IMG/VR virus record: IMGVR_UViG_3300008255_000058
Location: 1 to 39,201 of that record
DNA length: 39,201 bases
DNA from: a virus
Lineage: Duplodnaviria; Caudoviricetes
Reading direction: 5' to 3' (one strand)
Part shown: positions 2,995 through 25,546 of the stretch, one piece after another
Layout: each line of letters opens with the position of its first letter
Position numbering within the stretch: position 1 is the first letter of the stretch
Made by a program: the position numbers and the translations under genes
Notes under the pieces: model-generated
The model's input: only the letters and a program-made list of their open reading frames with translations
Told to the model about the DNA's origin: nothing
Database searches by the model: none

Positions 2995-3367
2995 GCGTGC
3001 TCACCCGGCGTCTCGGCTTCTTCTGCTCAAGGCAGCGCAGCTCGAACAGCGACTTGCCGCCAGCGCCTGCAACGAGCTGCAGATCGTTCGCGCGCAGCAT
3101 TTTTCCAAGCGACGCGTTGAACCGATTGACCCAGCGCATGTTCGGCAAGTACAGGTGCCCGGCCTTGCTGTCAGTGATCGACAGGCAGAGCTTGTGCACC
3201 TCCTCGATCGACTCGTCGCCGACGCCTGCCAGCAGCCGGTCAAGCCGGTTGGCCGACTCCGGATCGAGCGGGATGCACTGGCCGCTCAGCAGTTCAACAT
3301 CATGGGTACCGCAGGTCATGTCCGACCCTCCAAAGTCCACCCGCGCACGCGGATTGCCGTCAGCCAT
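2987..3367 (-). CDS. Hypothetical protein
   Basis: Probable start MADGN at 3367 with GAGGAGG RBS; overlaps both neighbours. Confidence 0.6.
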   Translation of the reverse strand: MADGNPRARVDFGGSDMTCGTHDVELLSGQCIPLDPESANRLDRLLAGVGDESIEEVHKLCLSITDSKAGHLYLPNMRWVNRFNASLGKMLRANDLQLVAGAGGKSLFELRCLEQKKPRRRVSTRG

Positions 3368-3935
3368 TCGTCGCCTCCTCAAACTTGCCAGCCTCGTTGC
3401 CCCAGGCATCCCAGCCCGGGCGGTGCTGGCGTGAAAACAGTTCTACCCGCCGCACGCTGGGCATGAGCGCCTCGGCCGCTGCAAACGCCTCGTCGGGCTT
3501 GCGGGAATGTTCGCGCCGAGGGCCCTCGATCACCGATCGGGTCGCGCGCGTTGTTTTTGGCTTGCCGCGCGTGCCGAGCAGGAACGGCTCGCTCGCGCAG
3601 CGCAGCAGGTAGCCCGTGCCAAATGCCAGCTTTCCGGAGGCGCCGCGCTTCACCCAGACGCCGCTCGTCTTGTACTGGAAGCCCCATGCCGCCATCACGT
3701 GCAGCGCCTGGGGCACCATCGGGTGTGTCGCCCAGAGCCAGAGCAGGCTGTCACGCGCCGCGAGTTGCTCGACAGGCAGCGCCGCGATGCGGTCCAGCGT
3801 CATGCAGTCGTAATGCGCCGCTGGCGCTCTGTGCTTTCCCTGCTCTGACCACGCCGCAAAGGACCAGGGCGGATCCGCCATGATCATCCCGTACCCGCCG
3901 GCCGGCCGGTCCTGGCTGAATGCAGCCAGCGTCAA
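3360..3935 (-). CDS. MT-A70 family N6-adenine methyltransferase
   Basis: IMADPPW catalytic motif, LWLWAT, WGFQYKT, GTGYLLR, EHSRKP, ELFSR, GWDAWGNE; probable TTG start at 3935 overlapping the upstream stop. Confidence 0.9.
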   Translation of the reverse strand: MTLAAFSQDRPAGGYGMIMADPPWSFAAWSEQGKHRAPAAHYDCMTLDRIAALPVEQLAARDSLLWLWATHPMVPQALHVMAAWGFQYKTSGVWVKRGASGKLAFGTGYLLRCASEPFLLGTRGKPKTTRATRSVIEGPRREHSRKPDEAFAAAEALMPSVRRVELFSRQHRPGWDAWGNEAGKFEEATNG

Positions 3936-4045
3936 AATGTGCCTCCCGCCATCCCGGCCAATGCCAGCACGGCCATGTAGGCCGTCAGGATCGCGGCAAT
4001 CGCCGCGAGATCCGCAATACGTGTGTCGTCCCCAGCCATTCGCAC
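3932..4045 (-). CDS. Small single-TM protein
   Basis: (V/M)RMAGDDTRIADLAAIAAILTAYMAVLALAGMAGGTF; stop overlaps the methylase start. Confidence 0.5.
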   Translation of the reverse strand: MRMAGDDTRIADLAAIAAILTAYMAVLALAGMAGGTF

Positions 4046-4152
4046 TACCGGGCTCCCATGATGATCGTGCCGATCGCAAGGACGACCAGGACACAGCAGG
4101 TATTGAACAGGGCCGCGCAGGCAATTGCCTTGCGTGACGGCCGCCATGTCAC
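4045..4152 (-). CDS. 35-aa hydrophobic peptide
   Basis: GTG at 4152 overlaps the upstream TGA; MTWRPSRKAIACAALFNTCCVLVVLAIGTIIMGAR; below the ORF-track cutoff. Confidence 0.5.
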   Translation of the reverse strand: MTWRPSRKAIACAALFNTCCVLVVLAIGTIIMGAR

Positions 4153-4442
4153 CCGGCGCATACATGCCTCCGTGACCATTCCGGGCCAGCTAACGTTATG
4201 GGCGGCGGTGTGCGCTGGGCCGGGGCCTGCAACAACAGGTCCTTGCCCGACAGGCCCCGGCTTTTCTGGAACCGCTTGCGCGCGCCGATCATCATCGTGA
4301 TCGACTGCACCGACAACCGGCCTTCAAGGTCCGGCCACCGTTCCAGGACTTCAGGGTGAATGTCCCGGCAGCGCCGGCCCTTGGTGTACTCCCCGAAAAC
4401 GTACTGCTGTACCTCGGAACTATACTTGCTTCGGTTCTTCAC
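4149..4442 (-). CDS. Hypothetical protein, possibly HTH-like
   Basis: GTG start with GGAG RBS; tightly packed in the early operon. Confidence 0.6.
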   Translation of the reverse strand: MKNRSKYSSEVQQYVFGEYTKGRRCRDIHPEVLERWPDLEGRLSVQSITMMIGARKRFQKSRGLSGKDLLLQAPAQRTPPPITLAGPEWSRRHVCAG

Positions 4443-4728
4443 TTTCCATGTCTCCCAGCTCTTTTCGCAGGTCCTTCACCGTTTTGAGGCTGACCCGCGT
4501 ATCCCGGCTCACCGCACTGTCGGTAAGCCCCTCATCGATCAGCCGGCATGCGCGCAGCAGCCGACTGTCAAATGCCTTGCTATCGCCCTCGAACCCGATG
4601 CGCCGCGCCGTCGTCGCAACCGAACCGGGCGGAATTTCCAGGAGCTGGGCGACCTCGCGAAACGTCTTGCCCTGGACAAGCAGCGCCTCAATCTGAGCGT
4701 CTCGTCTGGCCCGGTCCGCCGCATTCAT
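4420..4728 (-). CDS. Tandem HTH DNA-binding protein
   Basis: GKTFREVAQLLEIPPGSV and GLTDSAVSRDTRVSLKTV HTH-like motifs; ATG 4728 overlaps the upstream stop. Confidence 0.7.
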   Translation of the reverse strand: MNAADRARRDAQIEALLVQGKTFREVAQLLEIPPGSVATTARRIGFEGDSKAFDSRLLRACRLIDEGLTDSAVSRDTRVSLKTVKDLRKELGDMESEEPKQV

Positions 4729-5030
4729 TTTCCCGCCCCATCGCAACTTGCTATGGACACACCAGAGTATTTGCGGCCTGTTGAAACAAAGAATTTTGAA
4801 ACAGGGGGGAATAGATCATGCTCGAACTGCTCGAACTCGTTCCGCGCGTCTCCATTCATTGCGATTTTGTGGTCGTCGAAAAGCTCATCATTGATGAGTT
4901 CGGAAACACGAAACGCGCGAGCCGCACGGCCATGACACGCGCACTTGCATTTGAGCTGATGCTGGCCCTCGCCGAGGCGCTCGACCAGTCCTGTGCCAGG
5001 TGTGACAATGTTGTTTCGATACGAACTCAT
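4725..5030 (-). CDS. Hypothetical protein in the CII position
   Basis: ATGA-coupled at both ends; no recognisable motif. Confidence 0.45.
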   Translation of the reverse strand: MSSYRNNIVTPGTGLVERLGEGQHQLKCKCACHGRAARAFRVSELINDELFDDHKIAMNGDARNEFEQFEHDLFPPVSKFFVSTGRKYSGVSIASCDGAGK

Positions 5031-6073: not shown

Positions 6074-6107
6074 GCCTTACAAAGTTTCAAACCAAGGACA
6101 TCCTGAA

Positions 6108-6815
6108 ATGGTGAACTTCCTGACAGCTATAGCATTCGAACGTCACGTCGCTGAAAACGGCGCGGTATTCAAGGGCAACCTCGACCTCCGCGGCTGCACC
6201 GGCCTCGCCGCCCTGCCGGACAATCTCAGCGTCGGCGGCTGGCTCTACCTCAGCGGCTGCACCGGCCTCGCCGCCCTGCCGGACAATCTCAGCGTCGGCG
6301 ATCGTATTACACTGCCCGACCATCTGTGCGGCGAGATGCTGTGGGAAGGCGCGCAGATCCGCGTTGAGAACATTGACGGGATCACCATGGTGATGGACCG
6401 CCATATGCCTGCAGACGGCTTCGATATCTGGAAGGCGCGTTATTTCGGCAAGCCGATCGCTGGCATGGAGTCCTGCTTCATCGCCAGGATAGGCGAGCAC
6501 TACGCCCATGGCGACACGGTGCGCGCCGCGATCGAAGACGCGCGCGAGAAGGTTTTTGCAGGCCAAGGCGCTGCCGATATCGTCGCCGGGATCAAAGCCA
6601 GGGGCGAAGTCAGCTTTGCCGAGTTCCGCGCCCTGACCGGCGCGTGCCGCGAAGGTCTCAGGCAGGGCCTGCAGGAGCGGGGGTTGCCGGGCGACACAGA
6701 GAGCCTTTCGCTTGCCGAGGCCGTCAGGCTGGCAGCGGGGAACTCGTTCGGGGACCGGTTCATCGGTCTGGTATCCGGTGCAGCGCCGGCGAAAAAAGCT
6801 GAAGCTGAGGCGTGA
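6108..6815 (+). CDS. Protein with two 21-aa leucine-rich-like repeats and a C-terminal AHGDT...LTGACREG domain
   Basis: AAGGA RBS, ATG 6108; repeat LxLxGCTGLAALPDNLSVG. Confidence 0.75.
   Translation: MVNFLTAIAFERHVAENGAVFKGNLDLRGCTGLAALPDNLSVGGWLYLSGCTGLAALPDNLSVGDRITLPDHLCGEMLWEGAQIRVENIDGITMVMDRHMPADGFDIWKARYFGKPIAGMESCFIARIGEHYAHGDTVRAAIEDAREKVFAGQGAADIVAGIKARGEVSFAEFRALTGACREGLRQGLQERGLPGDTESLSLAEAVRLAAGNSFGDRFIGLVSGAAPAKKAEAEA
6190..6300 (+). repeat. Intragenic tandem repeat, 63-bp period, 48 bp identical
   Basis: 6190-6237 is identical to 6253-6300. Confidence 0.9.
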
Positions 6816-6818
6816 ACC

Positions 6819-7019
6819 ATGGGCCAGCCGTCACTCAAATATGCAGTCGGCCTCAATGATGAAGGCGCGATCGTGGCGTCAGCTGTGATCCTGGACGCAC
6901 TCGCATGCACCGAGGAGGACGCGCAGGCCTTTTGTTATCGCCATTCCCCGGTAGTGCGTGTGCTCGAGCATGCCGACTATGTGCGCCTGGTCGAGACGAA
7001 GGGATGGGTCGGGATATGA
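6819..7019 (+). CDS. Hypothetical protein
   Basis: GAGG RBS; stop overlaps the next ATG. Confidence 0.6.
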   Translation: MGQPSLKYAVGLNDEGAIVASAVILDALACTEEDAQAFCYRHSPVVRVLEHADYVRLVETKGWVGI

Positions 7020-10472: not shown

Positions 10473-11411
10473 ATGAAACCCGATATCTGCATCTACCATG
10501 GCAATTGCGCCGATTGGTTCACGGCCGCCTGGGCGGTCTGGAAGCGGTTCGGCGATGAGGTCGAGTACGTGCCCGGCGTGTACGGCGAAAGCCCACCGGA
10601 CGTGGCCAGTAAGAACGTCGTCATCGTCGATTTTAGCTACAAGCGGCCAGTATTGGAGGAGATGGCAAAGAGTGCCTATTCAATCCTCGTGCTCGATCAC
10701 CACAAGACGGCAGAATCCGATCTGGTGCAAGGCGGGATTTTCACGGCCATGAGCAAGTGGACTGACCGGTTAGACTGGCCACGCTATGAGGAGAACCTCA
10801 TGCAGGACGAGATGGAAAACGCCGGGTGCCGCATTTACACGGTGTTTGACATGGAGCGGTCCGGCGCCGGCATTACCTGGGACTTCCTGCACCCGAACGA
10901 TGCGCGGCCAAACCTCGTTAGGTATGTCGAAGACCGGGATCTCTGGCGTTTTACCCTCGACCAGTCGCGCGAGGTGAGCGCGTTCATCTTTGCGCATGCC
11001 TACACGTTCGATAACTGGCAAAAAATTAATGCCATTCTCGAGACAGATCGTACCAATGCGGCTGCTGGCGGCCGCGCAATCGAACTGAAACATCACAAGG
11101 ACGTGGCCGAGCTGGTGGCGAAGTTGAGGCGCCCGATGGTGATCGGCGGTCAGCTGGTTCCGGTTGCAAACCTTCCCTACACGCTGACCAGTGATGCCGG
11201 GCATCTGATGTGCGTTGAGCCGCATGAAGGGTCCCTGGCGCCGTTTGCTGCCTGCTATTGGGATCCGCCGGATGGTCGGGTGTTTTCGCTCAGGTCGGCC
11301 GAGGGCGGGTATGACGTTTCCGAAATCGCCAAAGCGTATGGCGGCGGCGGCCACAAGAACGCCGCTGGATTCACCATGCCGATCGGCTGGGAAGGCGATT
11401 CAACAGAATGA
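10473..11411 (+). CDS. DHH/DHHA1-family phosphoesterase
   Basis: YHGNCAD, IVDF, LDHHK, SGA, EDRDLW, SLRS and GGGGHKNAAGF motifs; AAGGA RBS. Confidence 0.9.
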   Translation: MKPDICIYHGNCADWFTAAWAVWKRFGDEVEYVPGVYGESPPDVASKNVVIVDFSYKRPVLEEMAKSAYSILVLDHHKTAESDLVQGGIFTAMSKWTDRLDWPRYEENLMQDEMENAGCRIYTVFDMERSGAGITWDFLHPNDARPNLVRYVEDRDLWRFTLDQSREVSAFIFAHAYTFDNWQKINAILETDRTNAAAGGRAIELKHHKDVAELVAKLRRPMVIGGQLVPVANLPYTLTSDAGHLMCVEPHEGSLAPFAACYWDPPDGRVFSLRSAEGGYDVSEIAKAYGGGGHKNAAGFTMPIGWEGDSTE

Positions 11412-12014: not shown

Positions 12015-12353
12015 CTAGGGCTTTTTCAGGCACCACTCGGCGTACTTCACCGACTCCTCGCTCGCATCATAGATCAGCTGCGCACGCGCCTCGAGGCAAC
12101 TCGACTTCTTGCAGGCGCCATGCATCTCGATCGCGACTGGCCCGGCCGCGCAATACTTCACGCCGGCGTTAAATCGCGACCAGCCATAATCGAGCCAGCA
12201 GACCGCCCAGAGCGCCGCCCAGGTCGACGCCGCGATGAACAGGCCCAGCAGCAGCAGCCGCACGCTCTCGACCACCCAGACCGGCGGCACGATGATCTGA
12301 ACGGCATTTCCTGACGCTTCCCGGGCGATCTGGTTTGCGAGCGATCGCGTCAT
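12015..12353 (-). CDS. Single-TM protein with a Cys-rich C-terminus
   Basis: ATG 12353 overlaps the o-spanin stop; LLLLGLFIAASTWAALWAVCWL. Confidence 0.6.
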   Translation of the reverse strand: MTRSLANQIAREASGNAVQIIVPPVWVVESVRLLLLGLFIAASTWAALWAVCWLDYGWSRFNAGVKYCAAGPVAIEMHGACKKSSCLEARAQLIYDASEESVKYAEWCLKKP

Positions 12354-12652
12354 AGCCGGCAGATCGGCGCGCTGGGGTCGACGCATTCGCAGTAATAGTC
12401 GGTCGCCTTGGCCTCGAGCGCGTCGCGCTTGACCTTCGGCAGGCTGTTGAACACGTCCGCCGGAATAGGCACCGGGCCGGTCAGCGCGCACATCGTGTCG
12501 TGCTCGTGCTCCTGGATCGTCGGCGCGACCTCCTTAATCACTGATGACGTATAGCCGGATCGGCTCTGGCAGCTGGTCAGCAGGAGCATCCCCACTATCA
12601 GGGCGGCTAGCAATACGATCCGCGCGACTCTCTGCACGCTCGAGGCGTTCAT
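12350..12652 (-). CDS. o-spanin (Rz1-like lipoprotein)
   Basis: Signal peptide with an LLTSC lipobox; overlaps the i-spanin 3' end. Confidence 0.75.
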   Translation of the reverse strand: MNASSVQRVARIVLLAALIVGMLLLTSCQSRSGYTSSVIKEVAPTIQEHEHDTMCALTGPVPIPADVFNSLPKVKRDALEAKATDYYCECVDPSAPICRL

Positions 12653-12863
12653 TGGATTCCTCCTTCATTTTGATGACGATCTGGTCGGCCGTTTTTTGCG
12701 CCCGCAGCGTTGCCCGCAGCCGTTCGAGTTTGAGCGCCTGGGCGACGCGCACGCGCACATAGGCCCAGAGCAGCGCCAGGGCGACGCCGATCAGGGCCAC
12801 CGCCTGCGCAGCGGGGTTGTCCTTGAACCAGAGCCAGAGCCCATATCCGAACGGCGCAGGCAT
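12534..12863 (-). CDS. i-spanin (Rz-like)
   Basis: ATG 12863 overlaps the endolysin stop (TGATG); N-terminal TM then coiled coil. Confidence 0.7.
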   Translation of the reverse strand: MPAPFGYGLWLWFKDNPAAQAVALIGVALALLWAYVRVRVAQALKLERLRATLRAQKTADQIVIKMKEESNERLERAESRADRIASRPDSGDAPADQLPEPIRLYVISD

Positions 12864-14119
12864 CAGCCCAGCGGCTCCTGATCGTGCTGGCGTCGGTGAT
12901 AGAGACTTGCCCGACCGTTCCACCACATCACCACACCCAGCACGATCAGAAACAGGCAGAACGCCACGCCCATGTAGATGAACGTCTGCGGCTGCAGGGT
13001 CTCGATCACCTTGCCGACCTTTTCGACATTGCCGACCGCGATCGCCGTGCCACCGGTACCGAGCGTTCCGATCGCGCCGAGTACCGTCGTCTCCTTGCCG
13101 CGCTGCGCCCTGTTGGCATCCTTGCCGCGCTTGGAGTGCTCGAGAAATTTCGGCTCCCTGGTTCCGTCGACTACGACCGCAGGCGCCTTCTTGACCGCCG
13201 CAGGGGCTTTGGCGGGCGCTGGGGCCGGCACGATCGGTTTCGGCGCCGTCGCCGGGATCTGCGGCACCTTGGCACCGAGACCCTTCGCCATGCCCGTATT
13301 GAGCCAGAACGTCTCGCGGTCCGCGGCGGACATGGTCGCCCAATTGTCCGGGATTTCGATCACGACCTGGTTGGGCTTTACCGCAGGCGCTGGCAGGGCC
13401 TTGGAAACTGCTGGCGGAGGCAACGGATAATCGCGAGCGACGCGCAGCACGTCCGCCCAGGGCGTCTTATATGTGACCGTATCGTACCAGCGATTTTTAG
13501 CTGGCTGCCATTCCGGATCAGTCTCGAGATCGATCCTATTGGTCTGCTCATCGATCGCGTCGTGCCCGTCGAGGCTGAGGAAAAGGCAGGCCTCGAGGCA
13601 GCGCCGACGGTAAAGCCCGCGCCAAGCCCGCACCCAGACCATGCCCTGCGTCAACAGGCGACCGTCGGGCCCGGTTTCGGCCCTGCCGATCACATTGCCG
13701 TCGGCGTCGAACTTGTTGCGCACCGTCGCATAGACAAAATCGCCGAACCGCGCCGCCGCATCGTTCCAGCGCTTGGCGTTGACATGCTCGAGCAGCTCAG
13801 ACCCTGCGAGGTCGTCGCTGCCGCAATTGTTCGCGAGCAGGTAGAGCGCGTCCCACTGGTACTGATTCAGGTCAACAGTGACCAGGCGCTGCACCTCGGC
13901 CTCGACCTGGCGCCACTTGTCGCTGGTCTCGACCTCGTACTGGTAATCGGTCATCACCGTTTTAGGCCCGACCTTTGTGCCGTCTGCCAGCATGTGCAGG
14001 CCGTCGCCGATCTGCCAGTTGCCAGCATCGTCCTGGTGCGCTGTCATGATCGTGCCGCCGGCCGGCCGCTCGAATAGTATGTTGACCGCCATGCCGGCGG
14101 CGCTGATTCCTGGCGTCAT
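12863..14119 (-). CDS. GH24 (T4-lysozyme-like) endolysin with a Pro/Ala linker and C-terminal TM segments
   Basis: FE...HQDDAGNWQIGDG, VTVDLNQYQWDAL, NCG, AAARF, GLYRRRCLEACLF; GGAGG RBS fits ATG 14119 (alternative 14125). Confidence 0.85.
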   Translation of the reverse strand: MTPGISAAGMAVNILFERPAGGTIMTAHQDDAGNWQIGDGLHMLADGTKVGPKTVMTDYQYEVETSDKWRQVEAEVQRLVTVDLNQYQWDALYLLANNCGSDDLAGSELLEHVNAKRWNDAAARFGDFVYATVRNKFDADGNVIGRAETGPDGRLLTQGMVWVRAWRGLYRRRCLEACLFLSLDGHDAIDEQTNRIDLETDPEWQPAKNRWYDTVTYKTPWADVLRVARDYPLPPPAVSKALPAPAVKPNQVVIEIPDNWATMSAADRETFWLNTGMAKGLGAKVPQIPATAPKPIVPAPAPAKAPAAVKKAPAVVVDGTREPKFLEHSKRGKDANRAQRGKETTVLGAIGTLGTGGTAIAVGNVEKVGKVIETLQPQTFIYMGVAFCLFLIVLGVVMWWNGRASLYHRRQHDQEPLG

Positions 14120-15603
14120 GGCCATTTGCCTCCCTCGATAATTGTCACCGCCTGATCAGACTCTGCGTCGGTCGCGGTCACCGTCAGCAGACCAGTTTCG
14201 CTGATCTCACAATCAATTCGCAGCACCGGCATTCCAGCTTCGGCAGCTGTCAGCGGGTAGCGGTACTCGGCGAGGAACGTGTTGCCGGCAGCTTGCAGGG
14301 CCCTGCCCTGGAATACGCCGACTGCCAGCTCGCCCTGGCCATCCTGCTCGGGCCCGATGATCACCGAGGCAGCCGTGCCGAATTTCGCGCCTTTGGGGAT
14401 GATCGGCAGGAATGAGCCGCCGGCCGTCTCGATGCCGTAAGCCATGGCGACGATATCAGTATGCCCGAACCGGGCCAGCCGGTTGTCTTTCTTCGCTGCC
14501 TTGATCGCAGCGCCGAGCGCGACGATCTCGTCAGGGTTTACCGTCTTGAGCGGCGCCTTGCCGCCAAAAAAGGCGCGCACCGAGTCACGCACCAGCGGCA
14601 TGCGGGTCATACCGCCGACAAGCACGATATGGTCGATCTCTGTCACCTTGCGGTCGGCATCGGTCAGGCAGGTCGCCGTCGCCTTCAGCGCCCGGCGCAC
14701 ATGGTCCTGCACCAGGTTGTCGAATTCTTCGCGGGTCACTGTGTAGGAAAGGTGCTCGGGCAGGTTCTGGACATTGTCAGCAATAAACGTCTCGCTGACC
14801 ACCGTCGAATTGCGCTCGGTCAACTCGCGCTTTGCTTCCTCGCTCGCCTTGGCCAGCCGCAGCATGGCGATATCGCGGGCGCGCAGGTCGATATCCTTGT
14901 CGGCCTTGTACTTCTGCACCAGGAAGTCGGTCAGGCTGCGGTCGAAATCGAGGCCGCCCAGCTCTTTCTCGCCATTGGTCTCGATCGGCTCGTACTGGCC
15001 CTCGACCCGGTGCATCACCGCGACGTCGAACGTGCCGCCGCCCATGTCGAACACCAGGATAGTCGAATACTTTTCCTCGGGCAGGTCGCAGGCCAGCGCC
15101 GCGGCCATCGGCTCGCCGAGCACCTCGATCTCGGTGAAACCCGCCATGCGGGCCGCCTCGATCGTCGCCGCCTTCTGGTTTTCGTCAAAATAGGCCGGCA
15201 CCGTCACGATCGCGCCTTCAACCGTCTCGCGCAGGTATTCCTCGGCCGCGTCGCGCAACTTGCGCAGCACCAGCGCCGAAATCTGCTCCGGCAGGATCGG
15301 ACCGTCACGCCCGCGCAGCGCCACCTTGCCGAGATCTCCCTCGCAGGTCTGCGGGCCTTGGTCGGCATTGTCGCGCCAGGGCTTGCCGATCAGGCGCTTG
15401 ACGTTGCTGAACGTGTACTGCGTGTTTCGCTTGATCTGGTCGCGGGCCAGCTCGCCCACCAGGATCTCGCCGTCGTCGAGATAAGAAACGACCGACGGCA
15501 GCACGCGGCTGCCATCTGGTAACGGGATCACAAACAGGCTTTGTCCGTCATGGAAGGCGACGCACGAATTCGTCGTGCCAAGGTCTATTCCTACGGTAAT
15601 CAT
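14116..15603 (-). CDS. Hsp70/DnaK-like protein (NBD + SBD-beta, no helical lid)
   Basis: GIDLGTTNS, PSVV, VKRLIG, TVPAYF, EPMAAA, DMGGGTFDV, LGGLDFD, LVGGMTRMP, NPDEIVALGAA, YGIET. Confidence 0.95.
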   Translation of the reverse strand: MITVGIDLGTTNSCVAFHDGQSLFVIPLPDGSRVLPSVVSYLDDGEILVGELARDQIKRNTQYTFSNVKRLIGKPWRDNADQGPQTCEGDLGKVALRGRDGPILPEQISALVLRKLRDAAEEYLRETVEGAIVTVPAYFDENQKAATIEAARMAGFTEIEVLGEPMAAALACDLPEEKYSTILVFDMGGGTFDVAVMHRVEGQYEPIETNGEKELGGLDFDRSLTDFLVQKYKADKDIDLRARDIAMLRLAKASEEAKRELTERNSTVVSETFIADNVQNLPEHLSYTVTREEFDNLVQDHVRRALKATATCLTDADRKVTEIDHIVLVGGMTRMPLVRDSVRAFFGGKAPLKTVNPDEIVALGAAIKAAKKDNRLARFGHTDIVAMAYGIETAGGSFLPIIPKGAKFGTAASVIIGPEQDGQGELAVGVFQGRALQAAGNTFLAEYRYPLTAAEAGMPVLRIDCEISETGLLTVTATDAESDQAVTIIEGGKWP

Positions 15604-17171
15604 TCTGCAGCTCCCGGCAGATCAATGCAAAGCCGGTCGCCGACCAGCACGACCGTCTCGGTCATGGCCAGCTGGCGCAGGCGCTTGGAGTCGTTGCCGC
15701 GCCGACCGAGCAGGCGCATGCGATCGCTCAGCTCGCGCGCCTTGCGCTCCTCGTCCGTTTCGCCTTTGTCTTCCGGTTTGTCAGGCGTGTCATTGGCAGG
15801 GGGCGGCGGCGGTGTCGCTGGGGGCTTTTCGGGCGGCGCTGGGGGCGTTGGCGGGGTTTCCTGTGCCGATGCAGCCAGCACAGCGCCAAGGAAGCCCAGC
15901 GCCGCCGCTGCGGCCCGGTATTCCGGATCCTCGCGGGCCAGCTCCCGAGCCTGCGCCTCGGCTTCACGTGCGACCCGCCGGGCCAGTGCCGTTGCTTCGA
16001 TGCGCGCCCTGTTCAGGTCCGCGCCGTGCTGGATCTCGCGGATCTCCTCGTCAATCTCGAGCTGCGCAATGATTCTCACAAACCTGCCGTGCAGGTCGGC
16101 ATAGGCGCCAAGGCCCAGCGCCGCGATTGCCTCGAGCAGCATGGCCAGGAAAAACAGGCCGCCATTCGACCATTGATCGGAGTCCCACCAGGTATGATCA
16201 CCGAGCCAGATGAACACTTCCCACGTATCGGCTGTGTTGTCGTTGACCGTGAGGTCGATTTTATTCGTTGCCTGCGCGGTCTCGATCGCCGCGATCTGGC
16301 GCTCCTTTTCGAGGATATCGGCGCGGGCGTCGGCCTGGTATTTCGAAATATCATCCTGCAGCTTCTGCACGCTGGCATTATCCGCCGCTGACATGCCGTC
16401 GACCTCGTCCTTGATCGCATCGATCGAGGCGCGGGCCTCTGCGATCGCCGCGTCGCGGTCCGCGCGAATACCCGCGATCTGGCCGTTGATCGTCGTGATC
16501 CGGCTGTCTTTCGTGTCAATCTGGGCCTGGGCGACTTCCTTGCCCATGATGGCGTCGATACCCTTGTCAGCATGGCCCGCCGCGAAAAAGTTCAGGGCCG
16601 ACAGGAGGCAGGCCGCGACGCAGAACAGCCAGATCGCGCGGACCGTAAGCCGGGCCGTCGTGTAGCCTTCGACGCCTTTGAACTTCTGCAGGAACACGCC
16701 GGACGCGACAGCACCGGTCCGCAGCACCAGGCCGAAGGCAATGAACACGGGCCAGAGCGCCCAATTGTCACCGGCGATCGACCCGAAAAAGATCATGTCC
16801 AGGACATAGACCACGCCGACAGATCCGACATATGTCGCAAATACGCCCTTGTCGGCGGCCTTGAGCAGCCAGATTCCTGTGATATCCGGAAACCGCCAGC
16901 GCCGGACCGACGCCATAGCGGCAATCAGCAGGCCAAACAGCCCGACGCTGATCACCGTGAAAGGAACACTCTGCGTGTGGTTCCAGGTAAATTCCGCCGC
17001 ATAGATCAACAGCGACCCGACGATCGGCGCGAGGCACAGCGCCGCAAATATCTTCAGCGGCCTTGACCCGGCAAACAGCCAGCCGGTACCGCGTCCGATG
17101 CCACGCCCGACGCCCACGGCGCCGGCCGATACGCTGCGACCGATGCCGCTGGCAAACGACTGCAGGCTCAT
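15600..17171 (-). CDS. Multi-pass membrane protein with a long coiled coil (DUF4407-like architecture)
   Basis: About 5 hydrophobic segments, ~110-aa heptad-rich region, a further TM, charged helix and Pro-rich linker; ATGA-coupled to Hsp70. Confidence 0.8.
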   Translation of the reverse strand: MSLQSFASGIGRSVSAGAVGVGRGIGRGTGWLFAGSRPLKIFAALCLAPIVGSLLIYAAEFTWNHTQSVPFTVISVGLFGLLIAAMASVRRWRFPDITGIWLLKAADKGVFATYVGSVGVVYVLDMIFFGSIAGDNWALWPVFIAFGLVLRTGAVASGVFLQKFKGVEGYTTARLTVRAIWLFCVAACLLSALNFFAAGHADKGIDAIMGKEVAQAQIDTKDSRITTINGQIAGIRADRDAAIAEARASIDAIKDEVDGMSAADNASVQKLQDDISKYQADARADILEKERQIAAIETAQATNKIDLTVNDNTADTWEVFIWLGDHTWWDSDQWSNGGLFFLAMLLEAIAALGLGAYADLHGRFVRIIAQLEIDEEIREIQHGADLNRARIEATALARRVAREAEAQARELAREDPEYRAAAAALGFLGAVLAASAQETPPTPPAPPEKPPATPPPPPANDTPDKPEDKGETDEERKARELSDRMRLLGRRGNDSKRLRQLAMTETVVLVGDRLCIDLPGAAE

Positions 17172-17503
17172 TCGCTGCCCTTTCCAAGCCGGTACCGGAT
17201 CGCGATCGAGATGCCTTCCTGGTGAATCATCAGCTCGACTTCGTCGACGTGCAGCGTGTGCCCGTCAGGCCCTGTCCGCTGCTGGTTGCGCAGCATGAAC
17301 ACCGACACGCCCAAGCCGAGAAAACCCTCGCGGGCCAGCTTCACGCGCAAGCTAGACGCCATTGCGTCCTCGATCGCGATCTGCTCGTGCCCACGCTCTC
17401 CGACGTGCGAAAAAGTCACGCCCTTGTTGATGTAGTGGTTTTCTTTTGCCCAGCCATCTGCCAGCCGGCGCAACAGGTCGCCCGTGATCTGGATCTCGTC
17501 CAT
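17168..17503 (-). CDS. Hypothetical protein
   Basis: GGAGG RBS; stop overlaps the next ATG. Confidence 0.7.
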   Translation of the reverse strand: MDEIQITGDLLRRLADGWAKENHYINKGVTFSHVGERGHEQIAIEDAMASSLRVKLAREGFLGLGVSVFMLRNQQRTGPDGHTLHVDEVELMIHQEGISIAIRYRLGKGSE

Positions 17504-17520: not shown

Positions 17521-17904
17521 TTACCCGAATTTCCTCGAAATGTATGGCCACGCCCGCTCGAGCAGGCCCGCCGCGATCATGCCGATCACGATGATGTAAG
17601 GCATCCAGTCACGCCGTGGCGGAGGCGGAGGCGCAGGGGGCGGGATCTTTGTCGCGATATCTGTCGCGACCTTGGTTTCGACCTTTTCCCAGAGCAGGCT
17701 GAACGCGTTTTCGACCGTGCGCTTGACGGCATCGTCGACCCAGCCGCGGGTCTCGGCCTTATCGTCGCGCAGCACGCTCTTGAGCTCGGCCGCGACCTCC
17801 TTGATCGCGCTCGTCGTCTCGCGACGGATATCGATCAGGTGCTCATGCGTTGGCATGCCGCGCACCCGCTCTTTCAGGACGCCGAATTCTTCCTCGATCG
17901 ACAT
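17521..17904 (-). CDS. Coiled-coil protein with a C-terminal TM (XhlA-like or holin candidate)
   Basis: Helical N-terminus, poly-Pro, WMPYIIVIGMIAAGLL. Confidence 0.65.
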   Translation of the reverse strand: MSIEEEFGVLKERVRGMPTHEHLIDIRRETTSAIKEVAAELKSVLRDDKAETRGWVDDAVKRTVENAFSLLWEKVETKVATDIATKIPPPAPPPPPRRDWMPYIIVIGMIAAGLLERAWPYISRKFG

Positions 17905-18423: not shown

Positions 18424-18762
18424 TCATTCCTTCTTGCAGTAATAGCTTGGCCGCTCGGTCACCAGCTGCCGGCAGAGGCGCTGGAACTCGGAGCCGTGTT
18501 CCTTGATCTTCTCGCCATGCTGGCGCCAGGCAAGGATGTGCGCGACCTCGTGCCGGATCCGGTTTTCCATTTCCTCGGGCTTCGGCGCGTCGCGGTTGGC
18601 AAGGATCCACTCGCCGCCGTCAGGGTCGCGCGCAGCCATCGCAGAGCGGTCAGTTCCCGGTCGACGCATCCACGGGTCATCGCCCGGAACTTCCTGCACG
18701 ATGACCCCGTTTGGCTGGTTCTGTTCCAGCAGGGCCTGCGCGACGATTTCTGCGGGGGTCAT
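18424..18762 (-). CDS. Small SprT-like Zn metallopeptidase
   Basis: IRHEVAH (HExxH) followed by HGSEFQRLCRQL. Confidence 0.7.
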   Translation of the reverse strand: MTPAEIVAQALLEQNQPNGVIVQEVPGDDPWMRRPGTDRSAMAARDPDGGEWILANRDAPKPEEMENRIRHEVAHILAWRQHGEKIKEHGSEFQRLCRQLVTERPSYYCKKE

Positions 18763-20445: not shown

Positions 20446-21021
20446 TTAGCGGGGCTTGCGGCCGTGGTTCAGATGGAACCCGTATTTGAGCTCGGCAGCT
20501 TTGCGCGCCGCGACAGCGTCGTCGAACGAGTCGAACAGTCCGAGGTGCAGATGCACCGTTTGGACCGTAATTTGAGCCTGCCACTTAGAGCGTTCGGAAT
20601 TCCAAAACACGCCGGTCACGCCGCTGGCGTTGTCAGATCGGCGCTGTTGGTTCTTGGAATTTTGCGCTCCAGTGGCGTTGCGCAAGTTCGCAATCCTGTT
20701 GTCTGTTCGAAAACCGCTGATGTGGTCGACCTCATCTTCCGGCCAACGTTCATGATAAACGGCGAAAGCGACCCGATGAGCCAGCACCGGTTTGTAGAGT
20801 ATGCAACCTGCACGATAGCCGTCCGATGTCTCAGAGGTGAATGCCTGCTTACCGGCATTGCGACCATTCCAAACGTTGGCGGATACTTGGCGGCCTCGGG
20901 CACCTTCTGCAAACATCCAGACCGGCCGTTCTTTCCAGGTCAGCTTGCCTGTCTCCGGGTCATAGTCGAGCAGGCGCCGCAGCACCCTTGCCGACGGTAA
21001 TTTACGCTTCTGTCCTGGCAC
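20446..21021 (-). CDS. HNH endonuclease with a C-terminal AP2 domain
   Basis: LDYDPETGKLTW, AHRV, VDHISG..DNRIANLR..N, SGVTGV..KWQAQI..LGLFDSFDDAVAARKAAE. Confidence 0.9.
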   Translation of the reverse strand: MPGQKRKLPSARVLRRLLDYDPETGKLTWKERPVWMFAEGARGRQVSANVWNGRNAGKQAFTSETSDGYRAGCILYKPVLAHRVAFAVYHERWPEDEVDHISGFRTDNRIANLRNATGAQNSKNQQRRSDNASGVTGVFWNSERSKWQAQITVQTVHLHLGLFDSFDDAVAARKAAELKYGFHLNHGRKPR

Positions 21022-21030
21022 GGTACTTGC

Positions 21031-21246
21031 TCAGACCGGTCTGAGGAGAACCGGTGCAGCGGGCCGTTCAAAATCCTGCAGCGCCTCTGAAAGGGACTTA
21101 AGCAGTTCGAATGCTGCATGCCGCGTATACGCCGCCGCTTGGACAACCTGGACGCCGCCATTGGTGCGCAGGCGGCTCTGAACCAGTATCATGTCGCCGA
21201 GTGACTCGACGTTCGGCGATGCGTTGGAGTATGAGAAATCAGCCAT
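21031..21246 (-). CDS. Small hypothetical protein, antirepressor-position candidate
   Basis: GAGG RBS; preceded by a leader hairpin; divergent from the RHH gene. Confidence 0.6.
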   Translation of the reverse strand: MADFSYSNASPNVESLGDMILVQSRLRTNGGVQVVQAAAYTRHAAFELLKSLSEALQDFERPAAPVLLRPV

Positions 21247-21277
21247 TGGGACCTCTTGAGCAGGTGCTGGTGGTTAG

Positions 21278-21360
21278 GGCCGGGTGGGAAGGGCCAACTT
21301 CCCCCCGGTCTGCCAATGTGGTATCAGAGTTTTATGAGCAAATCAATAACCGTGAAATCA
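21278..21360. promoter_or_regulatory. Leader hairpin and probable RHH operator sites
   Basis: Hairpin 21278-21310; TGTGGTATCA (21317) and CGTGAAATCA (21351), with an inverted copy TGATTTCACA at 21428. Confidence 0.45.
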
Positions 21361-21543
21361 CAGAAGCGCCGAGGACCTGCGCCAACCGGAAAAGGCACGC
21401 CGGTAATGGTTAGGCTCCATGAACCAATGATTTCACAAATTGATCAGTGGGCTCAAGAGTTTGCCCCTGGCGAGTCCCTCTCGCGACCAGAAGCGATTCG
21501 CCGTATGCTAGCGGAGTACCTAAAAAGCTGTGGGGTGAACTGA
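21334..21543 (+). CDS. Arc/CopG-like ribbon-helix-helix regulator
   Basis: KRRGPAPTGKGTPVMVRL...IDQWA...SRPEAIRRML. Confidence 0.8.
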   Translation: MSKSITVKSQKRRGPAPTGKGTPVMVRLHEPMISQIDQWAQEFAPGESLSRPEAIRRMLAEYLKSCGVN

Positions 21544-21544
21544 C

Positions 21545-21679
21545 ATGGATGTTGCGGGCTGCGGAGTAGTACTGGTTGTTATCGGCATCATCGCCGCGCT
21601 GTTCGTGTTCCTGCCGTGGCCGATTGCGCTCATCATCATTATTGGCTTGGGGCTCATCAGCGCGGGATATTCGAGGTAA
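21545..21679 (+). CDS. 44-aa two-TM membrane peptide
   Basis: MDVAGCGVVLVVIGIIAALFVFLPWPIALIIIIGLGLISAGYSR; 1 bp after the RHH stop; not in the ORF track. Confidence 0.65.
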   Translation: MDVAGCGVVLVVIGIIAALFVFLPWPIALIIIIGLGLISAGYSR

Positions 21680-21684
21680 AATTG

Positions 21685-21969
21685 ATGCTCAAGCGTACGC
21701 TGAAAATGCTGTGGAGATTCTACCAAGCGCTTGAAAATTGGAGCTGGGTCATAGGCATCGTCGCAGCATTCGCGGCCTTCCTGGTTAAATGGTTGAGCGC
21801 CCGGCTGCCTAATGAATACCTCGACTTCGCTTTTGGTCTGTCCGAGGCTCAATACCCACTGCTGCTGGTTGCGATATCTGGCTTTGTCCTGGCGTTTGTC
21901 GGCATAATCCGGACCAATCTGCAGGAGTGGTACACTCACAGAAGATCGTCTAATCCACCGCCGCGCTGA
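21685..21969 (+). CDS. Two-TM membrane protein, superinfection-exclusion candidate
   Basis: GAGG RBS before ATG 21685; WSWVIGIVAAFAAFLV and LLLVAISGFVLAFVGII; AT-richer than flanks. Confidence 0.6.
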   Translation: MLKRTLKMLWRFYQALENWSWVIGIVAAFAAFLVKWLSARLPNEYLDFAFGLSEAQYPLLLVAISGFVLAFVGIIRTNLQEWYTHRRSSNPPPR

Positions 21970-24900
21970 CATTCGACAACCGGTCTTCATCGGCCTGCAG
22001 AGCACGAATAGTCTGAGCATTGAGCTTGCCGTTTTCGACCAAGCCCCGCTTTTTCTGGTACTTGCGGACAGCCTCCGAAGTTTTTGATCTGCCCACAGTT
22101 CCGAATTTCCCATCAAGGACAAGATTTGTCCCGAGAATGACATTTAGCAGGCCCTGTACTTCCACCATGTCGTCGCCATCTGAGGCCAGATTTTCTGAGT
22201 AATCCCGAAATTCTTCGAAGCGTGCCACTTCAGATTTGGCCTTCTGTTCCCTAATCGATTGAGATGTTTTCACACTCCCCGCTACTCCCGCTGCCAGCAT
22301 CGCAGCAGCAACAGCCTGGCCCTTCAGCTCGTGACTGCCGAGCGGTTTGACCTCGCCGCTGGCGATCCTGTAGGCATCTTCGGCGCGGTCCGGGTTTAGC
22401 AGCAGGTCAAGCATCTCATTGTCGGTCTCGAGCTGGCGGCGTCCCGGCACGGCCGTGGCGCGCAAGTCGGGCAGGATGCCTGGCTCCTCCCGCAGGCGCT
22501 GGCGCACCGTGTCAGCGAACCGTCGCGCCTCGCGCACCAGAGCCGCGACGCTCGTATCCACCGCAGCAGGCACTTCATCGGCGATCTGGCGCAGGTTGGC
22601 CGTCTGGCCTTTCGATTTGGCCTTTGCCGCCTCCACCGCCGCCGTCGCATCGTCGATGCGCTTGAGCAGGGCGGCCTGGGCAGCTGCCTTGGCTTTCTGG
22701 GTCTTGAACTTCGTGTGCCCGCCGTCCGCGCCGAAAAAGCCGCGCAATTCATCCATCGCCGACTCAAGTTCAGCGCGGGCCGCCATGGTCTCGCGGTAGG
22801 CCCGGGACCGTGATTTCTTCGCCAGTCCAGCGGCCCGCTCGGCGTCCCGCAGCTTTTCAGCGGCAAGGTCGTAGCTCGTCAGGTACTGGTCGACCGCCTT
22901 TGCGTTTTCCTGCGCCTGGGCAGCGCGCTTGCTGCCGCGTCCGACGCGGCCACTGGTCAGCACCTGTTCGGCATCGCTTGCCGCCCGGCCCACTTCGGCC
23001 GCAGCCGCATCAGGGACGCGCATGCTTTCAATCGCAGCCTTGCCCGGCGTGGGCGTGTCCATGGCCGAAGGCGCGAGCAGTTCAGACTGCCGCCGCGGGT
23101 TGCGAGGCGACCGCACACGGCGATCAGCGGCTCGCAAGCCTTTCGCGATCAGCTTGCCAGGGCCGGTGGTATTGCCGTCAGGCAGGAAGCCAGCGGGCTT
23201 GACGGGGCCCGGCTCGTTGATCAGGTCATCAAGGCCGCGACCGAGCTTTTTCTTTGGGCGCTTGCGGGATTTGGCTTTCGGCGCAGGTTCGGGCGCCTGC
23301 GGGGCTGGCGGCCCTCCGCCACTGCCGCCCGCTGCCGGCGCCGCGCCGCCGCCAGGACCGCGCAGGGTCTTGCCGACCGGGCCCGTATTTGCGCGCTGCT
23401 GCAGCCGGGCGAGCTGGCGCAACATGTCGTCGCCCTGCGAAAGCAGTATCTCGGTCGCCGACCGGTTAATCTCCGGATTCATGACACCGGGCTGGACGAA
23501 CTTATTTTCCGCCCAGTTACCCAACTTTTGAAGCATTCTGCTTTGCGCAGCCGCAGGTCCTTGCGACACCGCCGAGCCGATTGCCTCGCCAATGTTCGAC
23601 ATAAACGTGTCATCGATCGATGCATCGGCCATGTCAGCCTGACGGAATGCCGTGCGGCTGTTGCCGAGGGTTTCGACGGTGAAGTCTGACCGGTTGGCGA
23701 CGCGCTCGACCTCCTGCTCAAGCTGCGCATTCAGGCGGGTCTGTTTGGCGCGGAGATCCTCCTTGCCCTTTTTAGTCAGCTTTTTCGGGAGCACAGCGTT
23801 GATCTTTTCCCTGATCGCCGGCGTTCGTGCGACCTTGCGCGTCGCGTCCGCAAAGCCTTTCATGTTGGACTGGTTGCGCAGGTCGTCACCGATCGCCCGC
23901 GCCGCGCCGATCGTGTAGGCTTGGCGCCCTTCCGGCGATGCCGGCGGAATCTCGATCTCAGGAGTCTTGTACCCCTGCAGCACCTGGTCGATGTCTTCGA
24001 CGTCGACGTTCTTGTTCATGAACTTGCGACCTTCCTTCAGGAGCTCGCCGCGGCGAATGCGTTCTGCTGCGATTGCCCGGGCCTCGCCGATGCCAGACGG
24101 ATCAATGATGGCCCGCAGGCCGTCGCGCAGGTTTTTCAGGCCGGATGGCACGTCCTCGGGCTTGCCCTTTCCTTCAACTGCCTGGTCGTACTTGCGGTTG
24201 ATCATGCGCTCGACATAGTCCGCCGCCTGAACCGACACGCGACGCGGTCGCTGGCCGTTCTCGATCTGCGCAACCATGGTTTTCAGCTCGTCGCGAATTT
24301 TAGGGAGCCGCATAGTATCTGCATATTTTGCGGCGCTTTTGACAGCTTCGCGCGCGACCTCGCTCTGCTCAATCTCACTCAGGAAACGGCCTGCGGTCTC
24401 GTTGTTGAAAAACGTCTGGTATTTGCGGCCCTCGCGCTCGTGGAAGTGGGCGAAATCATAGTACGGCTCGGGATCAGATGCCCGTGCGCGGGCTGCCTCG
24501 GCTTTCGCTTTTGGAAAATCCTTGCGGTCCGCGCCCATGGCCTCGGCGAACCGGCCTTCGAGCAGGTTGACCTCGTTCTTTCCGCGCTCGAGCAGGACGG
24601 CCTTGGCTGCCTCCTCACTCTGGCGGTTTGCCGTCACCATCGCCGACAGCAGGCCCCGTTCATTCGGGCCCATGAACTCGGCCAGGGTCTCAGGGACTTC
24701 GCCGGTCTTGTTCCAGGCCTCGAAATCGGCCCGCACCTTTTCCAGCGACGTGCCGGACCGCTCGGCCCGGCGCAGGACCATGTCGAGCGCCTTGTTTTCC
24801 GCGCTGGTGAACGCTTTGTAACCGATTGCCTTGACGATCGGCGCAACGGCGTACTCCGCCGCCGGGCCCAGCACAAAACCGCCTGCCGCGCCGATCGCGC

Positions 24901-25546
24901 CGCCGAGTGCTGCGTCGCCGAGCCTGTCGGCAATGTCGCCGTCCGCGTTACCGAACCCGTAAGTGGCGCCATAGGCGCCGCCCTCAAGCGTGTACTTTCC
25001 GGTCTGCTTCGCCGCGCCAGCCGCCTTGGCTCGCAGGCCCGTCTTGACCGCCGTCTCGCCCGCCTTCGCGCCGGCCGCTGCGGCTTTCGCGCCGCCGACA
25101 AAGCTCGGACCCGATGCCGCCGCGCCTGCAAACTCGCCGAGACCATAGCTCACCGGGTTGTCATACCGCGCCGTATCGTCGACCAGGCGCTGCGCGTCGC
25201 GGTTCTCGATGTAGTTTTCCCGGATCCCGGAATCCTCAGGCAGGAACTGCTCTGCAATCATGCCCGCCGCTGCATTGGCAACACCAGTCGCAACCCGGTT
25301 TGGCCCGGATCCCATGATCTTGCGAACGGCAGGCTTGGACCAATCAGGCAGCTGGTCCAGTATGACTTCGCGGCCGCCGGCAGCCTCGTCATTGAAGCCC
25401 CAGCCCTCGCCTGCCAGGAGGCCCTGCCCTGCGCTCTGGACCTGGTTGTATTCCTTGGGCCGGACCGCGACCTGCTGGTATTTCTCCCACGGCCTGGCGC
25501 CCGCTGGCGCGTCCGGCGTGGCGTATTTTTCCCACGGGCCCGCCAT
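21950..25546 (-). CDS. Large DNA ejection/internal virion protein with a C-terminal peptidoglycan-binding domain
   Basis: MAGPWEKY...PWEKY start, GFNDE, GATYGFG glycine-rich hydrophobic region, GNSRTA; C-terminal VQGLLN..DGKFG..T.EAVRKYQKKRGL..NG. Confidence 0.8.
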   Translation of the reverse strand: MAGPWEKYATPDAPAGARPWEKYQQVAVRPKEYNQVQSAGQGLLAGEGWGFNDEAAGGREVILDQLPDWSKPAVRKIMGSGPNRVATGVANAAAGMIAEQFLPEDSGIRENYIENRDAQRLVDDTARYDNPVSYGLGEFAGAAASGPSFVGGAKAAAAGAKAGETAVKTGLRAKAAGAAKQTGKYTLEGGAYGATYGFGNADGDIADRLGDAALGGAIGAAGGFVLGPAAEYAVAPIVKAIGYKAFTSAENKALDMVLRRAERSGTSLEKVRADFEAWNKTGEVPETLAEFMGPNERGLLSAMVTANRQSEEAAKAVLLERGKNEVNLLEGRFAEAMGADRKDFPKAKAEAARARASDPEPYYDFAHFHEREGRKYQTFFNNETAGRFLSEIEQSEVAREAVKSAAKYADTMRLPKIRDELKTMVAQIENGQRPRRVSVQAADYVERMINRKYDQAVEGKGKPEDVPSGLKNLRDGLRAIIDPSGIGEARAIAAERIRRGELLKEGRKFMNKNVDVEDIDQVLQGYKTPEIEIPPASPEGRQAYTIGAARAIGDDLRNQSNMKGFADATRKVARTPAIREKINAVLPKKLTKKGKEDLRAKQTRLNAQLEQEVERVANRSDFTVETLGNSRTAFRQADMADASIDDTFMSNIGEAIGSAVSQGPAAAQSRMLQKLGNWAENKFVQPGVMNPEINRSATEILLSQGDDMLRQLARLQQRANTGPVGKTLRGPGGGAAPAAGGSGGGPPAPQAPEPAPKAKSRKRPKKKLGRGLDDLINEPGPVKPAGFLPDGNTTGPGKLIAKGLRAADRRVRSPRNPRRQSELLAPSAMDTPTPGKAAIESMRVPDAAAAEVGRAASDAEQVLTSGRVGRGSKRAAQAQENAKAVDQYLTSYDLAAEKLRDAERAAGLAKKSRSRAYRETMAARAELESAMDELRGFFGADGGHTKFKTQKAKAAAQAALLKRIDDATAAVEAAKAKSKGQTANLRQIADEVPAAVDTSVAALVREARRFADTVRQRLREEPGILPDLRATAVPGRRQLETDNEMLDLLLNPDRAEDAYRIASGEVKPLGSHELKGQAVAAAMLAAGVAGSVKTSQSIREQKAKSEVARFEEFRDYSENLASDGDDMVEVQGLLNVILGTNLVLDGKFGTVGRSKTSEAVRKYQKKRGLVENGKLNAQTIRALQADEDRLSNVSAAVD

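Follow-up and report, generated by a model that had tools for sequence, protein, structure and literature searches.

Why would a tailed phage carry an Hsp70 gene among its lysis genes? The question is raised by IMG/VR record IMGVR_UViG_3300008255_000058, a complete 39,201-base phage genome with direct terminal repeats (the whole of this stretch is called the window here). In its minus-strand late operon a 495-aa open reading frame (ORF; 14116..15603) with the appearance of an Hsp70 lies between the genes for a 523-aa inner-membrane protein (15600..17171) and an endolysin (12863..14119). A sequence-only reading of the window had proposed that these genes, together with a small gene upstream and two spanin genes downstream, form a dedicated module; all of its ORFs lie where it placed them, on the minus strand. 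We find that the membrane protein/Hsp70/endolysin unit is real, conserved, under selection and, within the literature that we searched, undescribed; its function we infer.

The phage Hsp70 lacks a lid

The 495-aa protein is indeed an Hsp70, as had been read from its sequence. It matches PF00012 with an E value of 1e-125 (420 bits against a cut-off of 20.6, profile positions 2-494 of 599), and its AlphaFold model (predicted local distance difference test score, pLDDT, 87) matches DnaK in Foldseek with an E value of 8e-56. The model comprises an NBD (nucleotide-binding domain) as well as a beta-sandwich, with low confidence for the linker, and it has no lid, an absence that had been overlooked. 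Identity to cellular DnaK is ~40%, and curated models are not passed: the DnaK models TIGR02350 and NF001413 gave 446 vs 648 and 422 vs 823 bits, respectively, and the HscA model 344 bits against a cut-off of 620. Fifteen homologues of 490-495 aa (41-56% identity, on contigs of up to 57 kb) outrank the first full-length DnaK, and a profile search brought 45 further representatives of 465-540 aa.

We compared residues, in E. coli DnaK numbering, among 11 Hsp70s with a verified cassette. D8, K70, E171, D194, D201, G341, G342 and R345 are intact in all 11 and T199 in 10; the window Hsp70 retains every one of D8, K70, E171, D194, T199, D201 and R345. The peptide-pocket positions 401, 426, 436 and 438 are apolar in 11 of 11. 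Neither R167 nor D481 occurs in any of the 11 (the latter is Asn in two), R151 occurs in one, and none has a linker of four hydrophobic residues such as the VLLL of DnaK; in the window protein the linker reads FGHT, R167 is replaced by Glu and D481 by Thr. The lid (alpha part of the substrate-binding domain, SBD-alpha) is gone throughout, all 11 proteins stopping 1-7 residues past DnaK position 503. Judged from these alignments, the ATPase residues are intact and the lid, the VLLL linker and R167 are lost. In DnaK allostery and contact with the J-domain depend on the linker, R167 and D481, according to the accessible part of a published account (PMC8215388). A search for J-domains found none in the window and none in 30 carrier records, seven of them near-complete (positive controls matched in 12 of 14 genomes), and no GrpE was found in the window.

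The cassette Hsp70s form a single clade in two trees. With FastTree (110 rows), the 11 cassette Hsp70s group with 46 others at support 100, and with IQ-TREE under a mixture model (44 rows), 14 cassette rows group with seven others, again at support 100. Cellular DnaK, E. coli HscA and HscC, and 10 full-length viral DnaKs all fall outside; the sister group of the clade has support below 95 in the IQ-TREE analysis. The clade comprises ~57 sampled proteins of ~475-513 aa with a recurring end point. The ratio of nonsynonymous to synonymous substitution rates (dN/dS) ranged from 0.007 to 0.245 over 14 pairs and, for the six of these whose dS was <0.5, from 0.007 to 0.094; all the pairs were drawn from relatives of the window gene, which itself has none close enough. 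The cassette Hsp70s are under purifying selection, and a dN/dS near 1, which the sequence-only reading had said would speak against its proposal, was not found.

Single-sequence scans of viral DNA with the window Hsp70 and with the protein P0008 gave no matches, scans of GTDB found no prophage copy, and among the cultured phages of INPHARED the membrane protein occurs in none and all Hsp70 matches have at most 44% identity. One member of the family, QDP64353.1 (P0012 cluster), is deposited as a 'putative movement protein' of a prokaryotic double-stranded DNA virus, a label probably borrowed from closterovirus HSP70h.

Gene order is conserved around the Hsp70

Two sets of loci (L numbers below) served to examine gene order. 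The first, selected by the membrane protein, has 20 loci (L001 standing for L081), of which L085, a near-copy of the window phage, was set aside and six end too early. The Hsp70 gene is directly next in 13 of 13 informative loci, and the endolysin gene follows it in all 11 that reach further. The second set was chosen among viral contigs by an Hsp70 clade motif alone, to avoid selecting on a neighbour. This motif came from the family alignment, where its peptide form fits 33 of 55 rows, and only motif-bearing members were sampled; 88 loci matched, of which 30, in 20 clusters at 90% identity, encode the Hsp70. A gene with multiple transmembrane (TM) segments (337-490 aa) lies upstream in 29 of the 29 with upstream DNA, in one case 623 nt apart, and a lysozyme gene lies downstream in 30 of 30, in one case ~800 nt off. 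As controls, 80 generic lysozyme loci contained neither an Hsp70 nor the membrane family, and 79 generic viral Hsp70 loci contained neither a lysozyme nor the membrane family. The order membrane protein, Hsp70, endolysin is constant across Hsp70s of 30-56% identity.

The claim of a dedicated module is upheld by this conserved order and by dN/dS values far below 1; homologues in unrelated contexts, the observation that might have undone it, did not turn up in either direction (membrane gene 29/29, lysozyme 30/30). The start/stop overlaps that had been offered as a sign of joining are a different matter. All four are present in the sequence at the named places (ATGA at 17171-17168, 15603-15600 and 14119-14116, and TGATG at 12865-12861), but -1/-4 overlaps also occur at six of the 22 other junctions of the late operon, so by themselves they are weak evidence for a module.

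The Hsp70 travels with the lysis genes and apart from the head genes, since a window-type capsid is found in only one of the 30 carrier records (one of the seven near-complete) and the Hsp70 in none of seven relatives by capsid, two of them complete. The window endolysin family was likewise absent from the three capsid relatives tested, with a matching positive control; the two complete relatives thus have neither gene. One locus, L229, has an insertion that splits the Hsp70 gene from the endolysin gene, the latter lying ~800 nt past the Hsp70 stop.

The cytoplasmic tail of the membrane protein stays with the Hsp70

The 523-aa membrane protein begins with a 2-TM extension (aa 1-92), followed by three TM segments, a coiled-coil hairpin, a further TM segment, a cytoplasmic helix, a Pro-rich spacer and a tail (about the last 56 codons, 15600..15770) that we predict to be the Hsp70-docking segment. 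Its AlphaFold model is all-helical (pLDDT 69). Hydropathy gives six peaks, and four in 14 homologues (352-446 aa), which start ~90 residues later; the N-terminal extension (16896-17171) belongs to the window only and is absent from 14 of 14. The extension has no sequence match to the 21 small 2-TM genes found in relatives (see below). Because the loop between TM2 and TM3 is basic, we infer that both ends of the protein are cytoplasmic and the coiled coil periplasmic. Matches to DUF4407 (PF14362) over the coiled coil reach 17.5-22.6 bits, below the gathering score of 31.3; a viral fold search with the model returned only an uncharacterised phage protein (E 4e-6, TM-score 0.31), and the ESM Atlas gave no named family. 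Fusions of the membrane protein with the Hsp70 were sought among 104 long matches and none was found, the sole one with the clade motif being a kinase-DnaK fusion.

By their first 260 residues the upstream membrane genes fall into two families, the N-terminal modules of which are unrelated by profile alignment (<5% probability). The tail is the only region common to both (hhalign 97.2%, E 3e-11). In the second family the coiled coil includes a segment resembling the peptidoglycan-binding domain PF01471 (E 4e-4 and 0.011, both below cut-off), in keeping with a position in the periplasm.

Either membrane family can accompany near-identical Hsp70s, and module swaps can be followed at the nucleotide level. 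L213 is 96% identical to L210/L215 up to the start of the membrane gene, does not match them across the module, and becomes similar again 169 nt ahead of the Hsp70 start; L096 and L270 rejoin 171-177 nt before the Hsp70 start, and L087 and L208, which carry distant variants of the first family, 143 nt before it. Through these three swaps the last 48-57 codons, encoding the cytoplasmic tail, stay with the Hsp70. On an Hsp70 tree of 30 rows we count seven changes of membrane module, six of endolysin active-site type and three of tail type; the last, counted on the 22 rows with four shared types under labels set after inspection, is the smallest number possible. Among close pairs the 50-residue tail is mismatched in one of 39, and the first 50 residues of the endolysin, encoded just as near to the Hsp70 gene, in 15 of 39. 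The swaps, the shared tail and the tree thus lend genetic support to the partnership between Hsp70 and membrane protein that the first reading had supposed.

The membrane genes call for three further remarks. L203, L210, L218, L232, L269 and L270 have nearly the same second-family periplasmic module despite very distant Hsp70 lineages, which suggests that it spread recently. In L269 a 240-aa ORF, homing-endonuclease-like by eye (4114-4836, minus strand), lies between the membrane gene and the Hsp70 gene, and the tail there still fits the Hsp70 type. L001 encodes, upstream of the cassette on the opposite strand, a 244-aa multi-TM protein (6097-6831, minus strand) that matches neither membrane family.

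Endolysin, spanins and small genes

The endolysin belongs to glycoside hydrolase family GH24 and matches PF00959 above cut-off (E 5.5e-16). It has 418 aa counted from the ATG at 14119 and 420 from that at 14125; these two ATGs are two codons apart, and the second suits Shine-Dalgarno spacing better. A lysozyme domain is followed by a Pro-rich linker and a C-terminal TM segment detected by hydropathy, as expected of the membrane-anchored endolysin that had been described; no signal peptide was seen by eye. The catalytic Glu is invariant and the Asp present, and the third position is Gln rather than Thr in the window and Glu in many relatives. The protein falls in a family of 21 members that stands apart at E <1e-74; an endolysin scan yielded generic lysozymes only, and its match to the NCBIfam SpmX model is weak (E 0.007, cut-off not reached).

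The two genes that follow on the minus strand had been called spanins. Their topology suits that label: the 109-aa i-spanin candidate (12534..12863) has one N-terminal TM segment followed by a charged helix and has homologues 3' of the endolysin gene in relatives, and the 100-aa o-spanin candidate (12350..12652) is a putative lipoprotein with the lipobox LTSC, its gene overlapping the former by 119 nt. Neither matches a Pfam, PHROG or NCBIfam family above cut-off, so they stand as candidates.

Upstream of the membrane gene the more constant member is a 127-aa gene (17521..17904, minus strand) that lay outside the interval first described. It encodes a coiled-coil protein with a C-terminal hydrophobic segment, a build kept in relatives, and is a candidate holin or antiholin; coiled-coil genes of this type with a C-terminal TM segment are found just upstream of the membrane gene at 31 of 38 loci and lie one gene further up in two more. 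The 111-aa soluble protein (17168..17503, minus strand), to which we assign no function, was taken at first for a core part but is an add-on of one sub-clade: it is confined to three lineages, that of the window and those of L001/L082/L086 and L102, which group with the window Hsp70 in trees. Pfam, PHROG and NCBIfam gave no family match for it, and the ESM Atlas no named family. Small 2-TM genes follow the spanins in 21 of 39 loci and are absent from the window; these and the 127-aa type are the holin candidates of the loci, and none matches a named holin family.

The window phage and its host

The 39-kb window phage is temperate and has an integrase gene. Its late operon runs on the minus strand through terminase, portal, capsid, adaptor and tail genes in turn, and the G+C content over the cassette (0.61-0.66) is that of the genome as a whole. 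A 928-nt break in the operon (21021-21950) has lower G+C content (~0.55) and an adjoining HNH gene. Next to it a 1198-aa probable ejection protein (21950-25546, minus strand) has a C-terminal peptidoglycan-binding domain (PF01471). Elsewhere are genes for an SprT-like peptidase (18424-18762, minus), a DHH phosphoesterase (10473-11411, plus), an MT-A70 methyltransferase (3360-4124, minus) and a PcfJ-like protein (1106-2287, minus); no tRNA genes were found in the window.

The nearest cultured capsid is that of a Rhizobium phage (46% identity), the annotation of which has no Hsp70 entry. Among metagenome-assembled genomes (MAGs), members of a sister cluster and one endolysin homologue are labelled Hyphomonas, one member being on an 813-kb contig; Alteromonadaceae and Acidiphilium also occur as labels. 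The host of the window phage is likely alphaproteobacterial, and probably a hyphomonad.

What the unit may do

We favour, tentatively, a reading in which the Hsp70 is tethered at the inner membrane by the tail, in place of a J-protein, and there holds and gates the endolysin. Both termini of the membrane protein would be cytoplasmic and its coiled coil periplasmic, and its tail would bind the Hsp70, substituting for the absent J-protein and linker. The tail is most likely what recruits the Hsp70, because the J-domain contacts are lost and the Hsp70 is tied to the cytoplasmic tail of the membrane protein. Since the only membrane segment of the endolysin is C-terminal, its catalytic domain would be complete before any anchor is made and would have to be exported after synthesis, the open peptide groove of the Hsp70 keeping it export-competent. 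ATP turnover would set the moment at which active endolysin reaches the wall, the swappable periplasmic arm would position the enzyme, and the spanins would then complete lysis. For the C-terminally anchored endolysin of phage AP1, the accessible part of the report describes export that depends on both the TM segment and SecA, and sensitivity to azide (PMC8879335). As a whole the unit might then be an ATP-powered lysis controller, a possibility that we rate somewhat short of probable: a protein spanning the envelope, its periplasmic sensing arm exchangeable and its 50-residue tail replacing J-domain and linker, would drive a lidless Hsp70 to release an anchored endolysin. Were this true, lysis would include a phage-encoded ATPase step and nature would have supplied a J-independent Hsp70. 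Should the tail dock as predicted, the unit would let one see in nature what an Hsp70 can do when J-protein, lid and linker are all missing, and would help to explain how the catalytic domain of C-terminally anchored endolysins crosses the membrane; the ~50 tail residues singled out by the swap pattern are the first to probe.

Several points weigh against this. First, the same AP1 endolysin, with its C-terminal TM segment, lyses E. coli without a phage Hsp70 (PMC8879335, accessible part), so the architecture does not demand one. Second, endolysin types are exchanged among Hsp70 types, so that any client role of the Hsp70 is not sequence-specific. Third, the loss of R167, D481 and the linker may have put an end to any control of peptide binding by ATP. 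Fourth, some measures do not set the tail apart: the tail and the start of the endolysin do not differ significantly in their rank correlation with the Hsp70 (rho of 0.58 and 0.48, respectively; the bootstrap puts the difference at -0.23 to 0.38), nearest neighbours agree in 20 of 28 cases for both, and the 230-residue lysozyme domain tracks the Hsp70 better than the tail does (0.60 vs 0.50). The pairs compared share ancestry and are not independent, the tail types were assigned once the sequences had been inspected, and a tail might remain beside its Hsp70 through linkage together with homologous crossover in the spacer.

The main rival, which we consider plausible though doubtful, makes the tail the only client of the Hsp70. 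The Hsp70 would be an ATP-sensing clamp, comparable to a cytoplasmic antiholin, that holds back lysis by the membrane protein until ATP drops or the swappable periplasmic arm senses a signal, somewhat as in the lysis inhibition of T4 by T, RI and RIII. In its favour, the tail follows the Hsp70 tree whereas the endolysin does not, and the tail ends basic and then hydrophobic, presumably in the manner of a DnaK ligand. The near-identity of one periplasmic module across distant Hsp70 lineages is what a recently spread sensor would show. Against it, the loci offer further holin candidates in the 127-aa type gene and, in 21 of 39, in small downstream 2-TM genes, and a 350-520-aa membrane protein with a long coiled coil matches no holin family.

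Less likely than the clamp, and in our view improbable, is an envelope-remodelling machine, in which the actin-fold ATPase and a wall-anchored membrane protein would determine where, and not when, peptidoglycan is hydrolysed; in a prosthecate host the site could be the stalk or the bud neck, for instance. The PF01471-like segment of the second membrane family would suit such a role, although it is below threshold and the window's own family has no peptidoglycan-binding match. In its three parts the endolysin is built like SpmX (10.1101/418723, accessible part), and some family members bear the MAG label Hyphomonas, but MAG labels also include Alteromonadaceae and Acidiphilium, and the window host is itself no more than a probable hyphomonad.

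Prophage defence, superinfection exclusion or an anti-defence role in the lysis region had also been proposed for the Hsp70, and this now appears quite unlikely. In favour of the idea, the window phage has an integrase; yet tyrosine integrase and the PF07508 recombinase are both absent from four of the seven near-complete carriers. Swappable periplasmic modules are typical of conflict systems. Hsp70-like NBD/SBD units do occur in CoCoNuT defence systems, according to the accessible part of their description (PMC10542128). The genes here, however, are coupled into the late operon, with two promoter-like sites against 3.2 expected by chance, all 30 loci keep the position beside the endolysin, and PADLOC matched none of six proteins.

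We give little credence to a virion or DNA-ejection component: the place in the late operon after the tail genes would allow it, and a closterovirus HSP70 sits in a tail complex with p6, p61 and CPm (PMC12978162, accessible part), but only one of 30 carriers (one of seven near-complete) has a window-like capsid, and neither of the two complete capsid relatives has the Hsp70. A decaying or neutral captured host dnaK, for which the missing lid and ~40% identity to cellular DnaK might be cited, can practically be dismissed, given the same end point and length throughout a deep clade, the intact catalytic residues and dN/dS of 0.007-0.245.

Comparison with known systems

To our knowledge, lysis cassettes, composed of holin, antiholin, endolysin and spanin, contain no phage-encoded ATPase. 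We found no description of a membrane protein/Hsp70/endolysin unit in the literature searched, which largely leaves subscription journals uncovered. The accessible part of a 2026 survey of viral HSP70s has one phage sequence, a DnaK >96% identical to a bacterial one (PMC12978162).

The anchored endolysin has counterparts in HolAP/LysAP of Acidovorax phage AP1 and in SpmX of the Caulobacterales, which share the N-terminal lysozyme and C-terminal TM segment, SpmX also having a Pro-rich middle domain; the accessible parts of both sources describe no ATPase and no 350-520-aa membrane partner (PMC8879335, 10.1101/418723), and the word 'chaperone' does not appear in the AP1 paper. CoCoNuT Hsp70-like units, so far as the accessible text shows, belong to a different setting from a phage lysis cassette (PMC10542128). 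The DnaKs of large viruses and huge phages are likewise virus-borne Hsp70s, but the 10 that we checked are of 621-635 aa and nest among cellular DnaK. Closterovirus HSP70h is also virus-encoded, with a divergent C-terminus and the dedicated viral partners p6 and p61 (PMC12978162, accessible part); it differs in belonging to a plant RNA virus, in its 533-606 aa and in its roles in the virion tail and cell-to-cell movement.

Close in arrangement to the phage unit is HscC, a specialised Hsp70 encoded beside the tail-anchored J-proteins DjlB and DjlC and believed to work at the inner membrane with no need of GrpE (PMC8215388, accessible part). Both are Hsp70s encoded next to a membrane-bound partner; HscC, however, retains its lid, uses a J-domain and falls outside the phage clade, and the phage partner has no J-domain. 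With DnaK itself the phage protein shares the fold of NBD and SBD-beta, the nucleotide-binding and catalytic residues and an apolar peptide pocket, and it differs in having no lid or C-terminal tail, no DnaJ or GrpE alongside, and a clade of its own: a deep phage clade has reduced Hsp70 to NBD and SBD-beta and paired it with one membrane partner.

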